DNA from: a virus
Lineage: Duplodnaviria; Heunggongvirae; Uroviricota; Caudoviricetes
Reading direction: 5' to 3' (one strand)
IMG/VR virus record: IMGVR_UViG_2563366942_000013
DNA length: 10,458 nucleotides
The notes beneath the pieces are model-generated. The model was not told the DNA's origin, did not search any database, and worked only from the letters and a program-made list of their open reading frames with translations. Positions within the stretch are counted from its first letter, which is position 1. Each line of letters opens with the position of its first letter. Below are positions 2,620 to 10,458 of this stretch, piece by piece. The position numbers and the translations under genes are program-made.

Positions 2620-3210
2620 ATGTCTCGAATTTTTGCTTACTGTCGGATATCAACGCTGGATCAGACCACCGAAAATCAACGCCGGGAAATCGAAAGTGCA
2701 GGTTTTAAAATCAAACCTCAGCAAATAATCGAAGAACACATTAGCGGCTCAGCAGCAACCAGTGAGCGTCCTGGTTTTAACCGGTTGCTTGCTCGCCTGA
2801 AATGTGGTGATCAATTGATTGTGACAAAACTGGATCGCCTTGGTTGTAATGCAATGGATATCAGGAAAACAGTGGAACAACTGACCGAAACAGGTATCAG
2901 AGTGCATTGCTTAGCATTGGGGGGCATTGACCTGACCAGTCCAACAGGAAAAATGATGATGCAAGTAATTTCAGCAGTCGCTGAATTTGAACGAGACCTT
3001 TTACTTGAACGCACTCATTCCGGGATAGTAAGAGCCCGGGGCGCAGGGAAACGTTTTGGTCGACCACCTGTGTTAAATGAAGAACAGAAACAGGTGGTAT
3101 TCGAACGGATTAAGTCAGGTGTAAGTATAAGTGCCATTGCCCGGGAATTCAAAACCTCGCGGCAAACCATTTTAAGAGCCAAAGCAAAACTTCAGACACC
3201 TGACATATAA
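2620..3210 (+). CDS. pinQ: Serine recombinase / DNA invertase (Pin/Gin/Hin/Cin family)
   Basis: 196 aa; N-terminal resolvase/invertase catalytic motifs (YCRISTLDQ with active-site Ser, [10 protein letters not shown]) and C-terminal helix-turn-helix ([18 protein letters not shown]). Size and context match PinQ/PinR of Qin/Rac-type prophages. Confidence 0.9.
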
Positions 3211-3307: not shown

Positions 3308-3427
3308 CTACGGCAGTGCTGGCCATTCAATATCCTGTGCAGTTGACGTATCAACACGGTTCAGCAACACCCGATACTTCTTCCAGGCTTCCCGCAACGA
3401 GGTTTCTTCCTCCGTTGCATATACAGC
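3308..3427 (-). pseudogene. 3-prime remnant (39 codons) of a tail fibre assembly gene (tfa)
   Basis: Minus-strand frame translates [39 protein letters not shown] then stop (3308-3310); this matches the conserved Tfa C-terminal motif ([16 protein letters not shown]...IEWP) as recalled from lambda Tfa. An in-frame TGA lies immediately upstream (3428-3430) and there is no start codon. Confidence 0.6.
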
Positions 3428-3431: not shown

Positions 3432-3455
3432 TGAACCGCCCCGGGTTTCCTGGAG
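3432..3455. repeat. IS terminal inverted repeat (orfB-proximal end)
   Basis: TGAACCGCCCCGGGTTTCCTGGAG; partner at 4718-4741 in inverted orientation. Confidence 0.8.
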
Positions 3456-3473
3456 AGTATTTTATCTGTGAAC

Positions 3474-4364
3474 TCAGGCTGCCAGATCATCGTTTCCGAT
3501 GGAAGCATAATAAGCTTTTTCTGCTTCTGCCGGAGGAGTATGGCCCAGCCTTTCCAGCAATCGTCGATTGTTATACCAGTCCACCCACGTGAGTGTGGCC
3601 AGTTCCACTTCTGCACGGTTTTTCCAGCTCTTACGGTGTATTACCTCCGCTTTGTAAAGACCATTGATGCTCTCCGCCATCGCGTTGTCATACGAGTCGC
3701 CTGTACTTCCTGTTGATGCCAGTAATCCGGCTTCCTTAAGCCGCTGTGTGTAGGCCAGCGATACATACTGAGAACCTTTATCACTGTGATGGACCGTGCC
3801 GGACGGTCGACGGGCCCATAACGCCTGCTCCAGTGCATCCAGCACGAATGTCGTCTCCATGGACGATGAGACCCGCCACCCCACAATGTATCCGGCAAAC
3901 ACATCAATGATGAACGCCACATAGACGAAGCCCTGCCATGTGCTGACGTAAGTAAAATCAGCCACCCACAGCTGGTCAGGTCGTTCTGCCACGAACTGAC
4001 GGTTTACGCGGTCGCCTGCGGCAACGGCTTTCCGGCTGATGGTCGTACGGACCTTTTTACCCCGGAGAACACCGGCAAGTCCCATAACCGCCATGAGACG
4101 TGCCACAGTGCATCTGGCCACTCTGATACCTTCCCGTAACAACTGACGCCAGACTTTACGCACACCGTATACCTTGTGATTTTCATCGTATACGCGCTGT
4201 ATCTCTTTCTTCAGCCAGTCATCGCGCTGCGCACGGGCACTGCGTTTATCCGGATGATGTCGCTGTTGCTGACAGTGGTAATACGTTGACGGGGCAATAT
4301 GCAGTTCGCTGCATAGCGGTCCGACCCCGTACTGCTCACGCAGCTTATCCAGCAGTGGCATCAT
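3474..4364 (-). CDS. IS3-family transposase OrfB (DDE catalytic domain, 296 aa), normally expressed as OrfAB fusion by -1 frameshift
   Basis: DDE-type motifs (WVADFTYV..., [25 protein letters not shown]); ATG overlaps the orfA stop (ATGA) in the -1 frame. Confidence 0.9.
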
Positions 4365-4372
4365 TTTTTCCA
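4361..4372 (-). other. Putative programmed -1 ribosomal frameshift window (A6 run at orfA/orfB overlap)
   Basis: Minus strand reads TGG AAA AAA TGA with orfB ATG overlapping the stop; the A-run is a plausible slippery site by analogy with other IS3-family elements. Exact heptamer not verified. Confidence 0.45.
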
Positions 4373-4687
4373 GAGGCGGTCGAACTCCGCCTTCGCAAAA
4401 TAAGCGGAAGCCTGGCGAAGGATATCGTTACTGCGGCGCAGTTCACGATTTTCACGCTCCAGCTCTTTCAGACGCTGACGTTCAGCGGTGGTGAGCCCTC
4501 CATCACCGCCCCCGGTATCCCGCTCATGCTGGCGAACCCAGACACGCAGAGTCTCCGGCGTACAGCCAATCTTTGGAGCAATGGAACAAATTGTCGCCCA
4601 TTGTGAGTCATATTCGCCCTGACTTTCCAGAACCATACGGACTGCCCGTTGACGGACTTCAGGGGAAAAACGAGTATTTTTAGTCAT
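4361..4687 (-). CDS. IS3-family transposase OrfA (DNA-binding subunit, 108 aa)
   Basis: [53 protein letters not shown]... (HTH plus leucine-zipper-like region), recalled as characteristic of IS629/IS1203 OrfA. Confidence 0.9.
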
Positions 4688-4717
4688 CCTGTTTACCTCT
4701 TTCTCAGGAAGTTTAGT

Positions 4718-4741
4718 CTCCAGGATTCCCGGGGCGGTTCA
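4718..4741. repeat. IS terminal inverted repeat (orfA-proximal end)
   Basis: CTCCAGGATTCCCGGGGCGGTTCA, reverse complement of the 3432-3455 repeat with 2 mismatches. Confidence 0.8.
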
Positions 4742-4744
4742 CAC
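4742..4744. repeat. Target-site duplication (CAC), right copy
   Basis: See left copy. Confidence 0.6.
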
Positions 4745-4750
4745 CTTTTT

Positions 4751-5044
4751 TCACCCACGATTAACCAACAGCCAGACCAGCAGACACGCCACCACCGGCA
4801 CAGCAAAATCCATCAGGCTTGCCACATCCCACGCACGCGGATCAAAACCGCCCCACCACGGCATATTCATACGCTTGCCATGCCCGAACATTTCAATCCA
4901 GCGATATTCTGCCTGGGTATGTTCACGCGCAATGAAGAACGTACAACCAGCTATCGCCCCGTAAGCCCAGTTTCCGGTAAAAAGACCAACCAGTACCTGC
5001 GCAGCCACAGCACAAAGTGCATGAAGGAAAGGTGTTATATCCAT
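4751..5044 (-). CDS. Small integral membrane protein of unknown function (97 aa)
   Basis: Perfect Shine-Dalgarno AGGAGG 4 nt upstream of ATG (reverse complement of 5049-5054); two to three hydrophobic segments (FLHALCAVAAQVLVGLF, FAVPVVACLLVWLLV). Last gene of the tight minus-strand operon; stop is 6 bp from the IS target duplication. Confidence 0.55.
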   Translation of the reverse strand: MDITPFLHALCAVAAQVLVGLFTGNWAYGAIAGCTFFIAREHTQAEYRWIEMFGHGKRMNMPWWGGFDPRAWDVASLMDFAVPVVACLLVWLLVNRG

Positions 5045-5054
5045 TACGCCTCCT

Positions 5055-5759
5055 TTATCCGATATCGCTTCGGGAAACGGATAACAACTTTAATTCTGAC
5101 TCAAGTTCATCAACTCTTTCAGTCAGCTTCTGGATATGGTGAATCAGTGGAACAACCAGACGTTCGTACATTACACCTTCGGCAACAAGGCCATTGCTGG
5201 AAATGGTTTCCGGTGCATCATCTTCGTTGGCTGGTCGCCAGTGAACAAACTGAGGGGCAATTTCTCCAACTTCCTCGGCAATCAATCCATAGAATCCCCA
5301 GTCACGCCTGTCATTTTCGCATTGCGACCTGTACCACACAGGGCGCATCCTGAAAATGAGATCGGCGTGCTCTGAATCTATCGTCTCTACTGAATGTTTA
5401 TAGCGGATAGACGATGTTGACCGCAGCACAGACGAAATTGCAGGGTCAGGATTAAGATAAAGATTTGCCGCCGCTGTAGTTGTGCCCAATCCCCATAAAT
5501 AAAACGCTTCACGGCCAGTCAGCGGGTAAAAATCTCCGCCATAACGACCACTTTCCAGATCGTTCACTTCCACTTTGTTTTTCAGCTTATTATCAACTTC
5601 AGTTTTTGTGTATCTGGTGCTGATATCCTGCTTTGCACTGGCCATATCAGTCTGAAGCGTTGATACTTTTCCGTTAATAGAGGAAATATCTTCCTTTGCT
5701 TTACTGACATCTCCCTTCAGCGTGGTGATGTCTCCCGGAATTACTGTTGATGTAGCCAT
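5055..5759 (-). CDS. Short fibre-like protein: N-terminal coiled-coil region plus C-terminal peptidase-S74-type intramolecular chaperone domain (234 aa)
   Basis: GAGG Shine-Dalgarno 7 nt upstream. C-terminal half matches the S74 chaperone-domain pattern as recalled: S-S-I-R-Y-K-H-S-V (Ser116/Lys121 spacing like S-D-x-R-L-K-x-N-I), RPVWYRSQ, GFYGLIAEEVGEIAPQFV, VPLIHHIQKLTERVDELESEL. N-terminal heptad-like repeats (DITTLKGDVSKAKEDISSINGKVSTLQTDMASAKQDIS). Confidence 0.7.
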   Translation of the reverse strand: MATSTVIPGDITTLKGDVSKAKEDISSINGKVSTLQTDMASAKQDISTRYTKTEVDNKLKNKVEVNDLESGRYGGDFYPLTGREAFYLWGLGTTTAAANLYLNPDPAISSVLRSTSSIRYKHSVETIDSEHADLIFRMRPVWYRSQCENDRRDWGFYGLIAEEVGEIAPQFVHWRPANEDDAPETISSNGLVAEGVMYERLVVPLIHHIQKLTERVDELESELKLLSVSRSDIG

Positions 5760-5768
5760 TTCTCTACC

Positions 5769-6050
5769 TCACATCCAGCCACGAAGTTGATGCTCAACAG
5801 CAACCGCGTATTCATCGAATAATGACGATATTTGCGTATCCTTAATAATGCGCACGTTTACAAAATATCCATCTTCCTTAACACATACCGGTTCGCCATC
5901 TTCAGTCAGCTCTCCGGTTTCTTTGTACACGTTACCTATCACATCAATCAGAATATCATCCTGCATCGACTCGTCATTATAATAGCCAATACTTCCCATA
6001 AAGGCCGAAAAGTCGGCCCTGTCGGCAAATTTGAGTGTTAAATCTTTCAT
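5769..6050 (-). CDS. Hypothetical acidic protein (93 aa); possible fibre chaperone or accessory protein
   Basis: ATG overlaps the upstream stop (TAATG) indicating translational coupling; GGGGAG about 8 nt upstream. No recognisable motif; highly acidic. Confidence 0.5.
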   Translation of the reverse strand: MKDLTLKFADRADFSAFMGSIGYYNDESMQDDILIDVIGNVYKETGELTEDGEPVCVKEDGYFVNVRIIKDTQISSLFDEYAVAVEHQLRGWM

Positions 6051-6913
6051 TAGATTGACTCCCCCATCTGAGCATCAGTCAATGCCTTGTGCCAAATACG
6101 CAGATTTCGAACGTGTCCAAATAGGTGACGGTTGCCGGATGATGATTGACCACCAATATTAATGAAGCCTCCTGTATATTTGTGTTTTTTATAAGGAGAA
6201 ACTACCTTAGCACCAATATTACCGTTAACCACAACACACAATTCTCGACTTTCTGTGAATCTAAAGCCGATAATGCTTTTTCTCTCTGGTCGTTCTATAA
6301 CGCTTTTATATTCTATTTTAGTGCCTTTACCATTTGTAATGATTGCGCGTGCTCCCAAAGATGTATACCCCAAATACATATAACTTTCATCTGCAATTTC
6401 AGTTGTATCTCCCGTAGTGGAAATATTAAGAATACGTGCGCTACCTTCTTTGTTTGGCGATTCATCCCAATTGGTATTAACTTCTGCTAATGAACTAATA
6501 GCGGGATTGCACCAATTTAGAGAAATGGGGACCGTTACAATATCGCTGGCGCGTGTTACAGGGGATGCGCCTGTTATAATAAACGATGAAGCGCATGCCC
6601 CACCTTCAACTTGAGGGGTCGCAATATAAATATAATCATCCGCGCCAGTGCCCACTCCTTTTGCCGGGGCATACTGAACCATTCCACCTATCATATTTTC
6701 TGTATCAAGTGCCTTAATTGTCGCCTCAAAAAAGATCCATTTGCTTGCTTCATCTTTAACAGCCCTTGCAGTAATGCGATTAGCGGCACCACCCGTCTTA
6801 TCAATAGATAAATCTGTCGTATTTAAGTAAGCGTCACCTAAGAATGTGTAGGTAGAACCATCATAGTTTTCAAATCGTAATCGGCATCTTAAATTTGGAG
6901 TGCCACTTTGCAC
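6050..6913 (-). CDS. LamG/concanavalin-A-like lectin-domain protein; probably the distal receptor-binding part of the side tail fibre (287 codons, GTG-initiated as drawn)
   Basis: C-terminus shows LamG-type pattern (VVVNGNIGAKVV...GGFINIGGQSSSGNRHLFGHVRNLRIWHKALTDAQM). In the same frame as stf, separated by a single TGA (6941-6943) and 9 sense codons; no ATG and only a weak RBS at the GTG. Confidence 0.6.
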   Translation of the reverse strand: MQSGTPNLRCRLRFENYDGSTYTFLGDAYLNTTDLSIDKTGGAANRITARAVKDEASKWIFFEATIKALDTENMIGGMVQYAPAKGVGTGADDYIYIATPQVEGGACASSFIITGASPVTRASDIVTVPISLNWCNPAISSLAEVNTNWDESPNKEGSARILNISTTGDTTEIADESYMYLGYTSLGARAIITNGKGTKIEYKSVIERPERKSIIGFRFTESRELCVVVNGNIGAKVVSPYKKHKYTGGFINIGGQSSSGNRHLFGHVRNLRIWHKALTDAQMGESI

Positions 6914-6940
6914 CCTGCATGATATGGTTACATACTTTTC

Positions 6941-8455
6941 TCAGCCTGTTACATCAAAACCTTTACTGCCGGAAACGGTTACTATGTTAATCGCTGAAAT
7001 TTGCCCTACCATTTCTGGTTTTAATGTAAATTTTGCGTACTGGAATCCGAAATCATCTACACCTGATGCACTTAAGATCATATTTGACGACTTGTTCCAT
7101 TTAGTCGGATTTGTTGAATTGATTAGCAGGTTAGTTCTTTGCCCCTCAATAAGCAGGCCATCACGTTCAAATCGTGGCTCGTCAATGGCAGCCTCTGTCA
7201 GCACACCAGATTTATTAATGTAAGTTGCTTTCGATGCGCGTTTAAACTTTACAATCTTGTCGCCAGGCATTGTTATTTCATCGTCGCCAATAACAATTTT
7301 TTTATATGATGGCGAAAAGCCCGTAATCATATCCAGTGAATCATTAAACGGTATCCACACATCAGGCAGTGGCTGTAAGACATATTTATACGGCTCTGCT
7401 GCCTGACTTGCATACTCTCTGGCTGCGTCTTCACTTGCTTTAGCTGCTGTCTGGCTTGCTGCCGATGCTTTCGCCGAGTTCGCCGCTGCAGTCTCGCTTG
7501 TCTTTGCATTGGTTTCACTGGTTTTTGCTGCTTTTTGACTGTTGGCTGATGCAGTGGCAGAAGCAGCCGCCGCGCTTGCAGAACTGGCTGCGGCACTCTC
7601 GCTTTGGGCCGCTGCATCCTGACTGCTTTTCGCCGCAGTTTCACTGGCTTTGGCATTCGTTTCGCTGGTCTTCGCTGCCGTCTGGCTGGACTTTGCGTTA
7701 GTTTCACTCGTCTTCGCAGCTTTCTGGCTGTTAGCCGCAGCAGTTGCTGATCCAGCTGCTGAAGTCGCAGAACCGGCTGCCGCGCTCTCGCTTTGGGCTG
7801 CTGAAACCTGGCTGTTTTTTGCTGCAGTTTCACTGGCTTTAGCATTCGTTTCGCTGGTCTTCGCTGCCGTCTGGCTGGACTTTGCGTTGGTTTCGCTTGT
7901 CGTTGCGGCTGTCTCGCTATTTTTCGCGTTGGTTTCTGATTTTTTAGCTGCTGTTGCGGAGTTTGCCGATGCAGTCTGCGAGGCCGCTGCCGCCTGTGCG
8001 CTGTTAGCTGCATTCGTTTCTGAGGTTTTCGCCGCGTTCTTCGATGATGCCGCTGCAGTTTCGGATTTCTTTGCCGCCGCTGCGCTCTGAGAGGCGGCTT
8101 CAGCGTTGCGTGCCGCTTCTTCCACCATTTCCTCAAAACGACGCAATGCCTCCGGCATGACATCATCTTCCGTCATGGCACCGAGAAAATCATTCAGCGT
8201 ACCTGGTCTGGAACCTTCATAGACGGTAATGGTTCCGGCATGTGAAGGCGGAAAACCTTCAACCAGCAGGGTGACGCTGTACTGGCCATACTCAACATCC
8301 ATGCTGTAACGCCCGGCTTCATCCGGATTTTCAGAGGCCACTGTGTTGACCAGTACCGTGGTGCTGTTACGCTTTGCCTTCAGTTGAATAGTGCAGTTCT
8401 GTATTGGTTTTCCCGCACCATCTTTCAGCACACCTGAGATTTTTACTGCTGCCAT
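6941..8455 (-). CDS. stf: Side tail fibre protein Stf (lambda-like N-terminus, Ser/Ala/Thr-rich repeat region, distinct distal segment)
   Basis: MAAVKISGVLKDGAGKPIQNCTIQLKAKRNSTTVLVNTVASENPDEAGRYSMDVEYGQYSV... closely resembles the lambda/Rac Stf N-terminus as recalled. GGAG Shine-Dalgarno 5 nt upstream of ATG at 8455 (track start at GTG 8461 is probably an over-extension). Ends at TGA 6941-6943. Confidence 0.85.
   Translation of the reverse strand: MAAVKISGVLKDGAGKPIQNCTIQLKAKRNSTTVLVNTVASENPDEAGRYSMDVEYGQYSVTLLVEGFPPSHAGTITVYEGSRPGTLNDFLGAMTEDDVMPEALRRFEEMVEEAARNAEAASQSAAAAKKSETAAASSKNAAKTSETNAANSAQAAAASQTASANSATAAKKSETNAKNSETAATTSETNAKSSQTAAKTSETNAKASETAAKNSQVSAAQSESAAAGSATSAAGSATAAANSQKAAKTSETNAKSSQTAAKTSETNAKASETAAKSSQDAAAQSESAAASSASAAAASATASANSQKAAKTSETNAKTSETAAANSAKASAASQTAAKASEDAAREYASQAAEPYKYVLQPLPDVWIPFNDSLDMITGFSPSYKKIVIGDDEITMPGDKIVKFKRASKATYINKSGVLTEAAIDEPRFERDGLLIEGQRTNLLINSTNPTKWNKSSNMILSASGVDDFGFQYAKFTLKPEMVGQISAINIVTVSGSKGFDVTG
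7596..7973. repeat. Imperfect tandem direct repeats inside stf (189-bp spacing, about 115-bp conserved core, nested 42-bp/14-aa sub-repeats)
   Basis: CTCTCGCTTTGGGC... recurs at 7596 and 7785; protein shows repeated AAKTSETNAKxSxT units. More degenerate copies extend to about 7440-8060. Confidence 0.6.
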
Positions 8456-8463
8456 ATCCACTC

Positions 8464-8493
8464 CACAAAAAAGCCCGCCTGAACCGGCGGGCT
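8464..8493 (-). terminator. Rho-independent terminator downstream of lom / upstream of stf
   Basis: Minus strand: GCCCGCC-GGTTCA-GGCGGGC followed by TTTTTTGTGGAG; the T-tract runs into the stf Shine-Dalgarno. Confidence 0.6.
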
Positions 8494-8519
8494 GTCATAA
8501 CACTGTGTTACCTGGCTAA

Positions 8520-9119
8520 TCAGAATTTATAACCGACACCAACGATGAAACCGTCAGTGCGCCAGTCACCACTGCCAGAACCTTCATAAGCAATATCAAT
8601 GGCCACGGATTCGGTCGGGTTAAACTGCACGCCAGCCCCCCACGCCAGAGACGTGTTGCTGTGGCGATCGTCATCACTTCCGGTCAGCACATCGTGCGTT
8701 TTCCCCTTGTTGTCAGTTACGCGGAGATAATCCCCGGAGAACGTCGAAACACGGCTGTAAGCCACACCTGCCATCGCATAAGCACTGAACCATTCATTCA
8801 CGCGTACAGATGGCCCCGCCATCATGCTGAACCAGCGGTTACGCACTGAATCTTCATGCCAGCGGGTATCGCTGTAATGCGTTTTTTGCTCACCTTTGGC
8901 ATTGGCATAACTGAATGACGTCACCAGCCCCAGCGTGTCCGTAAATTCATAACGGTATTTCACGTTAATGCCCTTCAGGTCATCACTGCCTGGCATATCA
9001 GTATGGGTTTGAAGATACCCGGCGCTTAGTGTGGACTGATGCTCTGCTGCGCTCGCTGACGTACCAGCAGCAACCAGCCAGACTACTGCGGACAGAATAA
9101 CAGCACATAATTTACGCAT
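8520..9119 (-). CDS. lom: Lom/Ail/PagC-family outer-membrane protein (prophage moron)
   Basis: 199 aa with signal peptide (MRKLCAVILSAVVWLVAAGTSASA) and C-terminus DIAYEGSGSGDWRTDGFIVGVGYKF matching lambda Lom as recalled; GAGAGG RBS upstream; location between J and stf as in lambda. Confidence 0.9.
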   Translation of the reverse strand: MRKLCAVILSAVVWLVAAGTSASAAEHQSTLSAGYLQTHTDMPGSDDLKGINVKYRYEFTDTLGLVTSFSYANAKGEQKTHYSDTRWHEDSVRNRWFSMMAGPSVRVNEWFSAYAMAGVAYSRVSTFSGDYLRVTDNKGKTHDVLTGSDDDRHSNTSLAWGAGVQFNPTESVAIDIAYEGSGSGDWRTDGFIVGVGYKF

Positions 9120-9186: not shown

Positions 9187-10458
9187 TCAGCTGATACTGA
9201 TGCCTGCGGTGGCTTTCTTCATCACCACAACCAGCAAATCGCTGATACTTGCTGTGGGATACCAGTCATTTACCAGCCATGCTGACACCGAAAACTCCAG
9301 CGTCATGTGACCGTGACCGGCAGGCATATCAATAACGCCACTGTAAATCAGCGTATTATCCAGCGCGGTACGGTTATAAATTTCAGCACCGTTTTTCCGC
9401 ACTATCAGACGGCATGAGGAGTAAATATCAGTATGCTCTCTCTCATGTTTAGCGCCGCTGAATGCCACCGCCGGAATAACAATCTGCCGGTCAAACGGCT
9501 GATCGTCATAAATCCTGACGGTAATGGTCCCTGATGGCCACCGTTCCGGTGCACGGGAGTCCCGGGGGAAAGCTTTGCCCACTGTTTTAACGAGATCGCC
9601 TTCAATCTGGTTCGCGGACAGTTTTCCCAGAACCCGGCAGTTCTCGTTAATCGTGACGTTGTTGAGCGTCCCGGAGTTCGCATTCACGTTACCGCTGATA
9701 TCGGCATTTTTCGCCGTCAGCCGCCCGTCCGGTGTCAGGGAAAATGCCGGAGGATTACCGCCGCTGGTAATGGTGGGAGCCGTCAGATATTTCAGGAACA
9801 CTTCGTTCATGAATATCTGATCGCCCTGCCCAACAAACATCGGCTTTGTGTTGCCATTCGCAGGATTAATCATCGCAATCCTGTCTGCCGCCAGCAGCAC
9901 CTGACTCTGCATGCCGTCAGGGGTGTTTTCAATACCGGCACCAATACCCGCGATATAAAGGCGTCCGTCCTGCATCTGCTGCAGCTTCACAGCCCACATG
10001 CTGTTCAGGTTATTATTTGTATCAACCTGAACCTTCTGTATCTGCTGGATCGCTGCACTCTGGTCTTCCAGTTTCTTATTGACGGTCTGCGTGATTTCAT
10101 TACTGACATCCGTGATGGACGTTCTGATTTCCGCCAGGTCAGGCGCAAGCTGACCGTTATCAATCTGCGTCCACAACTCCTGAGCCAGATGGGTTTTCCC
10201 TATCTCTCCTTTGAAAAAATCCAGATAGCCGGATGCATCATCACTCGGCTGGCCAACAGCCTCCACGAATGCCGATTTGCCAACGGTGTTCACACTGCGG
10301 ATGTAAAAATAATAATCATGGCCCGGCTTGATATTGATACTGGCAGCTATCCAGTACAGCGCCGTGCCAAGATAGCGGGCTGTGGTTTCAACCTGCCTGA
10401 TATCCGCAATCCGCTTTTCCGAGAACCAGAACTCAAACTGTACCGTCGGATCATAAAC
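9187..10458 (-). CDS. J: Tail tip / host specificity protein J (central tail fibre), C-terminal portion; 5-prime end lies beyond the window
   Basis: Frame is open from the window edge through 9187. Translation ([19 protein letters not shown]..., [39 protein letters not shown], ...DMPAGHG...) matches the lambda J C-terminal region as recalled. Track start at 10293 is an internal GTG. Confidence 0.9.

Follow-up and report, generated by a model that had tools for sequence, protein, structure and literature searches.

The ORF at positions 6050-6913 of the window, the whole 10,458-nucleotide stretch of DNA analysed here, proved not to be an independent gene. It is an orphaned piece, the 3' part of a side tail fibre (stf) gene that was inactivated recently and that belongs to a cryptic, decaying prophage. 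The C-terminal domains of this fibre probably form an exchangeable specificity module, in which a LamG domain acts as a glycan-binding knob and which a nonsense mutation has put out of use in this copy. The features of the window are listed in Table 1.

Table 1. Features of the window and parts of the repaired 803-residue fibre
Feature	Position	Strand	Fibre residues	Remarks
Truncated ydfJ	1-1284	minus		
ydfK		plus		
pinQ invertase gene	2620-3210	plus		intact
tfa 3' remnant	3308-3427	minus		adjoins pinQ
IS3-family element	3432-4741			1310 bp; terminal inverted repeats TGAACCGCCCCGGG...
IS3-family element orfB	3474-4364			
IS3-family element orfA	4361-4687			
97-aa hydrophobic protein	4751-5044	minus		phrog_1443; last gene of the cassette
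234-aa short second (distal) fibre protein	5055-5759	minus		Peptidase_S74 C-terminally
93-aa gene	5769-6050	minus		start overlaps fibre gene stop
Side tail fibre gene	8461-6050	minus		~803 codons, split by TGA
ORF 6050-6913	6050-6913	minus		287 aa from GTG; 3' fragment of fibre gene
In-frame TGA	6941-6943	minus		nonsense mutation of GGA Gly codon
Fibre gene 5' part	6944-8461	minus		506 codons; tail-attachment domain, Ala/Ser/Thr-rich shaft, conserved junction
phage_tail_N (Pfam PF08400)			5-134	225 bits; in ORF 6944-8461
Ala/Ser/Thr-rich repeats			~105-355	
Conserved junction			~356-440	
Domain 1	6518-7246	minus	~406-648	GTA head-spike-fibre-like beta-sandwich; spans TGA
Domain 2 (LamG)	6053-6553	minus	637-803	C-terminal jelly roll, ~165 aa
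lom	8520-9119	minus		
gpJ C-terminal part	9187-10293	minus		frame open up to window end

Concerning the status of ORF 6050-6913, an earlier note had read a LamG/ConA-like lectin fold in it. The sequence was indeed found where described, on the minus strand with a GTG start and 287 residues, but translation showed that it shares one frame with ORF 6941-8461 and that the TGA at 6941-6943 is all that separates them, so that it cannot be regarded as a gene of its own. Both parts match a single 793-position PHROG designated 'tail protein' (phrog_1419), positions 1-503 corresponding to the upstream ORF and positions 516-793 to ORF 6050-6913. Intact relatives have GGA (Gly) where the window has TGA, and P0001, which is 100% identical across all 287 residues of ORF 6050-6913, has Gly at the stop position (...VTGGEKYV...). 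A single ORF of ~800-814 codons is present in the E. coli loci L009 and L010 and in most of 80 IMG/VR contigs, L011-L018 among them. In L011-L018 the LamG domain is 100% identical to that of the window and the fibre gene is uninterrupted; relatives thus have an open frame from attachment domain to tip, and the window does not. A 41-mer centred on the TGA had an exact match in only 1 of 5426 complete E. coli genomes, which fits a recent random mutation. The GGA-to-TGA change would stop translation 296 codons early, inside domain 1. At the other end of the gene, the ATG at 8455 is likely the true start. RefSeq labels the fibre copy of strain MS 21-1 an 'internal stop' pseudogene.

We considered whether the LamG domain might still be produced from the window. 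If ORF 6050-6913 were independently translated from the GTG at 6913, it would give a free LamG lectin; an open frame with a GTG start is present, and N-terminally shorter database proteins of ~406-430 aa exist. However, these shorter entries start at an internal Met of the continuous ORF or lie on short contigs, the window frame runs on into the upstream ORF past the single TGA, and a protein made from the GTG would start midway through the beta-sandwich of domain 1 and lack the tail-attachment domain. Moreover, an AGG directly abuts the GTG, leaving no spaced Shine-Dalgarno sequence, and a scan of the minus strand from 4700 to 8700 gave no promoter-like site. We regard a gene of this kind as extremely improbable. 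Of the stop codons, UGA leaks most in E. coli, the remainder of the ORF is without further lesions, and its LamG part is 100% identical to intact alleles, all of which would suit a TGA that is read through or recoded often enough to supply useful amounts of full-length fibre. On the other hand, intact alleles of the same LamG type have a sense codon (Gly in P0001, no stop in L009-L018), and the TGA allele is confined to the single genome mentioned above. In addition, related prophage copies decay too, with IS elements cutting lom in strains MS 21-1 and Ecol_316 and both J and the fibre gene in SCU-172, and the window itself carries the IS3-family insertion at 3432-4741. Productive read-through is very unlikely in light of these points, although UGA may be read through at a low level. 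As the nonsense codon cuts off the LamG domain and neither a promoter-like site nor a usable ribosome-binding site is available to its fragment, the domain is very probably not made in the window's genome, which speaks against its serving there as a fibre tip. The window LamG would persist only as sequence that an infecting phage could acquire by recombination. This copy is a dead allele of small direct importance, at most a recombination donor to infecting phages (PMC3945230).

Annotation of this gene family in the databases is affected by an artefact. Two intact alleles homologous to window 6050-8461 (L009 2809-5253 and L010 2809-5253) are labelled by RefSeq/PGAP as pseudogenes 'missing C-terminus'. 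The RefSeq feature stops ~133 codons early, which leaves the LamG coding part unannotated, whereas the ORF is actually continuous over 814 codons. In the window, the antisense ORFs 6146-6490, 6417-6614 and 6611-6811 overlap the conserved coding frame of 6050-6913 on the opposite strand and were treated as chance ORFs. Long overlapping ORFs in other frames or on the other strand at 7327-8166 and 7650-8090 look like by-products of the repeats; the repeat shaft (window 7400-8150) displays an AT skew of -0.45 to -0.59 and a GC content of 0.56.

The intact fibre would consist of four parts, a tail-attachment domain, an Ala/Ser/Thr-rich shaft, a head-spike-fibre-like beta-sandwich (domain 1) and a terminal LamG jelly roll (domain 2). 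It has the phage_tail_N N-terminus of lambdoid Stf proteins and, like them, is encoded after J and lom. Among relatives, the length of the intact fibre ORF ranges from about 700 to 822 codons. Domain 1 was recognized by the NCBIfam model NF048003 (GTA_spike_fiber) with 38 bits against a cut-off of 36, over aa 30-122 of ORF 6050-6913 and despite the cut made by the TGA. A family profile also matched the PDB sequence 6tb9_F3 (Rcc01080) with an E value of 1.3e-14 at profile positions 29-271, and the pLDDT of domain 1 was 85-96 in structure model 1. The first ~120 residues of ORF 6050-6913 are the C-terminal half of this domain, and the coordinates of the ORF thus enclose half of domain 1 and the whole of the LamG domain.

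The C-terminus of ORF 6050-6913 reads ...GNRHLFGHVRNLRIWHKALTDAQMGESI up to the stop codon, also given as ...HLFGHVRNLRIWHKALTDAQMGESI. With Pfam Laminin_G_3 (PF13385), the window sequence scored 20.5 bits (E 5.6e-4, aa 224-282, model positions 92-149), below the gathering threshold of 27.6 bits for membership. The same model matched 29 of 40 homologues at E <= 0.01, the best at 9e-9, and several homologues have precomputed PF13385 annotations. With AlphaFold2, the last 167 residues (6053-6553) were modelled from a 41-sequence alignment at a pLDDT of 83.2 and a pTM of 0.81. The model is a jelly-roll beta-sandwich of two sheets and can be superposed on LG/LNS domains. In a Foldseek comparison with predicted viral structures, coliphage tail fibres came out on top, followed by many proteins with LamG/ConA-like names. 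Taking the homologue matches, the model and the Foldseek matches together, the predicted fold of domain 2 is a LamG/ConA-like jelly roll, which confirms what had been read from the sequence. The pattern had been placed in the C-terminal ~130 residues; it is there, in a domain that extends over ~165. Compared with the laminin-G, neurexin LNS, pentraxin and CBM40 domains of the ConA-like lectin/glucanase superfamily, sequence identity to the window LamG is only 10-19%. A homologue search with a LamG-only alignment returned mainly short E. coli fragments and did not widen the family. Relatives are named 'phage head spike fiber domain-containing protein' or 'LamG domain-containing protein' at NCBI; the LamG-type domain is already annotated in many coliphages, and the window copy is a defective member of that family.

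The C-terminal module was found by tblastn in 205 phage records. These include the T5-like phages KookSpook (65.7% identity), VSe12 and IrisVonRoten (43.8%), the T1-like EC125, Seuratvirus KurtStettler, Dhillonvirus, the rV5-like phage nomine and lambda hybrids such as Lambda_2G7a. The allele of the window (at least 99% identity over the LamG module) occurs in 60 genomes, and some relative of the module in 1123 of the 5426 complete E. coli genomes. An alignment of the repaired window protein with 66 distinct full-length relatives was used to calculate their mean identity to it. Values were 0.79-0.98 for aa 1-440 (>0.9 outside the repeat shaft), 0.42-0.65 for domain 1, 0.73 for the inter-domain linker and 0.88 for the last 23 aa. 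The lowest values, 0.32-0.37, fell in the LamG core (aa 681-760), where the protein varies most. The variability is internal to the domain, the terminal strands being conserved and the core hypervariable, with the first ~45 and last ~35 residues nearly invariant. GC content, 0.56 in the shaft, is lower in the C-terminal module (0.37-0.47). Relatives of the module were also seen in records labelled Campylobacter (8) and Listeria (3), which is unexpected for an enterobacterial fibre tip; these records may be mislabelled or contaminated.

We then turned to the genes 3' of the fibre gene. A homologue of the 93-aa protein is encoded within a few bases 3' of every LamG-ended fibre gene in the 90 loci compared (90/90), and each annotated phage example has a gene of ~92 aa straight after the fibre gene. 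The 93-aa protein (phrog_1361) is 38% identical to gp23 of IrisVonRoten (E 3e-25). LamG-ended fibres have it as their obligate partner. No match was obtained in Pfam or NCBIfam, and a PDB sequence search gave nothing below E 0.5; with these searches empty, its role as an adaptor or assembly factor is put forward by inference. The next gene usually encodes a fibre protein with the N-terminal motif M[AV]TxT[VI]IPxDIxxLK and a C-terminal Peptidase_S74 chaperone, and the order fibre, 92/93-aa gene and chaperone-domain fibre is conserved across relatives. In the window this is the 234-aa protein, whose N-terminal docking motif (MATSTVIPGDITTLK) is conserved and common to all distal-fibre types, and which matches Pfam Peptidase_S74 at aa 116-172 (27.2 bits against a cut-off of 22). 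Its best relative in the PDB is 8hqz_d ('L-shaped tail fiber assembly', 1076 aa; E 1.2e-7). The main distal-fibre types are N1 (234 aa, that of the window) and N2 (~346 aa), and those of lytic phages have 510-582 aa. In 4 of the 90 loci (L007, L033, L034 and L089) the second fibre gene is absent. Divergence of the 93-aa protein was rejected as a marker for the presence of a distal fibre, as divergent forms occur both in these four loci and in the lytic phages, which have one. The 97-aa protein, which has no Pfam or NCBIfam match, is encoded in most loci behind the distal fibre gene or, where that gene is absent, immediately behind the 93-aa gene. The homologue of the 234-aa protein in the lytic phage EC125 (L005 5128-5808) is 59% identical over aa 1-223, and the record annotates it as two hypothetical proteins (a 174-aa protein and a 51-aa ORF), which suggests that this second fibre gene is split or mis-called.

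How the LamG domain and the distal fibre vary with respect to each other bears on function. Clustering of the LamG domains gave 13 types, of which types 1, 4 and 9 are each found with both N1 and N2, and one 93-aa cluster pairs with eight LamG types. The LamG core assorts independently of the distal-fibre type. Since this core varies more than any other part of the protein and reassorts freely against distal fibres, we favour a role in host range, by receptor recognition and probably through glycan binding, and the receptor role that had been suggested from the sequence remains plausible. A polysaccharide is the favoured ligand, because domain 1 is homologous to the capsule-binding fibre of the gene transfer agent RcGTA and because the lateral fibres of the coliphage groups listed above end in the same module and their loci are generally held to recognize O-antigen (10.1101/2021.03.08.434280). 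Domains 1 and 2 would together be the exchangeable specificity module of the fibre. LamG most likely serves there as a lectin-like knob whose ligand, bound reversibly, is a variable polysaccharide of the cell surface (O-antigen, capsule or LPS core). The second fibre protein, self-cleaving by means of its chaperone and separately exchangeable, would probably join the same fibre. Attachment would probably proceed through conserved elements, namely its own N-terminal motif, the 93-aa protein and/or the conserved junction, giving a two-part or branched fibre. The conserved terminal strands of LamG, the junction and the 93-aa protein may accordingly provide a constant scaffold for the second fibre. 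LamG had been placed at the distal end of a side fibre; it does form the C-terminus of an Stf-family fibre, but as the conserved 93-aa gene and usually a second S74 fibre gene follow, it is unlikely to be the sole tip.

That the 93-aa gene is so strictly linked to LamG could also mean that LamG is a docking or assembly surface. It would then be a structural platform for the 93-aa protein and thereby for the second fibre, with receptor recognition residing entirely in the second fibre and J. This would agree with the presence of the 93-aa gene behind every LamG-ended fibre gene, with the almost invariant ends of the domain and with the N-terminal motif conserved among distal fibres. Baseplate wedge proteins also have LamG-like folds, and LtfA of phage DT57C can act merely as an attachment site for LtfB (PMC4728585). 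A surface for conserved partners, however, is expected to be conserved, and it is the LamG core that varies most. LamG clusters also pair freely with either type of distal fibre and with a single 93-aa cluster, and in the four loci without a second fibre LamG ends the only side fibre. Taking these points into account, we consider a purely structural role unlikely and retain host-range recognition as the preferred function.

The closest system described to date is the lateral fibre Gp22-Gp23-Gp24 of the Tequintavirus IrisVonRoten (Bas32) from the BASEL collection (10.1101/2024.09.12.612763). The C-terminal 287 aa are 43.8% identical to Gp22, and both systems have the order fibre, 92/93-aa protein and a fibre with an MxTxT(V/I)IPxDIxxLK N-terminus and a C-terminal chaperone. 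The N-terminus, on the other hand, is the lambda Stf phage_tail_N type in the window and of the T5 Ltf type in IrisVonRoten, and the window gene is a nonsense pseudogene in a cryptic prophage. The distal proteins also differ, that of the window having 234 aa and Gp24 574 aa, with only the first ~30 aa and the chaperone region aligning. The middle part of Gp24, which would hold the Gp12-like domain, had no detectable similarity to the 234-aa protein, and the T-shaped distal fibre with a Gp12-like RBD1 and a T5-like RBD2 has no equivalent in the window. In IrisVonRoten, Gp24 is predicted to be the distal, T-shaped fibre and to attach to the proximal fibre Gp22, and the C-terminus of Gp22, in these predictions, protrudes as a 'galectin-like' domain that may serve as one more receptor-binding domain (10.1101/2024.09.12.612763).

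Domain 1 is related by sequence to the RcGTA head spike fibre Rcc01080 (GhsB; PDB 6TB9, 6TSU), which binds capsular polysaccharide (PMC7296036, PMC10218006). Rcc01080 itself is a single-copy head decoration of 325 aa that attaches through N-terminal Leu-Gly repeats. The profile match stops at its residue 281 of 325, and LamG has no aligned counterpart there. As only residues 2-10 of Rcc01080, and not its globular part, have been resolved experimentally (PMC7296036), the two were compared at the level of sequence. With the lambda/K-12-type Stf, the window fibre shares the N-terminal domain, the place after J and lom and a nearby Pin invertase, whereas its C-terminal ~400 aa consist of unrelated modules. 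The genes that follow are the 93-aa, S74 fibre and 97-aa genes and not tfa, of which only the 3' remnant is left; no Tfa-like ORF was found among them in Pfam, NCBIfam or PHROG. The tip of this fibre thus differs from that of the lambda/K-12-type Stf. Among Stf proteins, that of Ur-lambda targets OmpC and that of Gifsy-1 the Gal II of the LPS core (PMC12312913). The T5-like DT57C LtfA/LtfB (PMC4728585, PMC10713586) resembles the window system in having a two-protein lateral fibre with the second protein, carrying Peptidase_S74, attached via the first; the best PDB relative of the 234-aa protein, 8hqz_d, is likewise an L-shaped tail fibre protein. LtfA and LtfB, however, both end in chaperone domains, and neither a LamG end nor a 93-aa gene has been described there; DT57C was for these reasons rejected as the closest architecture. 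The LtfB N-terminus is related to gp15 of phiEco32.

The range of O-antigen or capsule types open to a phage depends on the tips of its side and lateral fibres, and a catalogue of exchangeable fibre modules would be useful for predicting and engineering host range. The module, comprising the head-spike-fibre-like domain, the LamG knob and the obligate 93-aa partner, is widespread in E. coli genomes and in at least five lytic coliphage groups, and its LamG core is a diversity hotspot that recombines independently of the second fibre. A broader, tentative and at present rather doubtful idea is that LamG fibre, 93-aa adaptor and the N-terminal peptide of the next fibre make up a general plug-and-play coupling used by lambdoid prophages and by T5-, T1-, Seurat-, Dhillon- and rV5-like phages. 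If true, one side fibre would bear two independently exchangeable binders, the LamG knob and the distal fibre.

The window is a segment of the E. coli chromosome at the ydfJ/Qin prophage site. A truncated J was considered and rejected, as the J frame is open through the window end. Flanked by the tfa remnant and the 97-aa gene, the IS3-family element is absent in the closest genomes, whose match begins at 4742; its size and ends resemble those of IS629/IS1203. The stretch separating the tfa remnant from pinQ showed no alternative tail-fibre gene segment. The remnant and pinQ may be the relic of a former Stf/Tfa inversion system that was displaced by the LamG cassette. Between lom and the fibre gene start, the minus strand contains a strong terminator-like hairpin (8472-8493) with 8 pairs, 7 of them G-C, followed by a T run.
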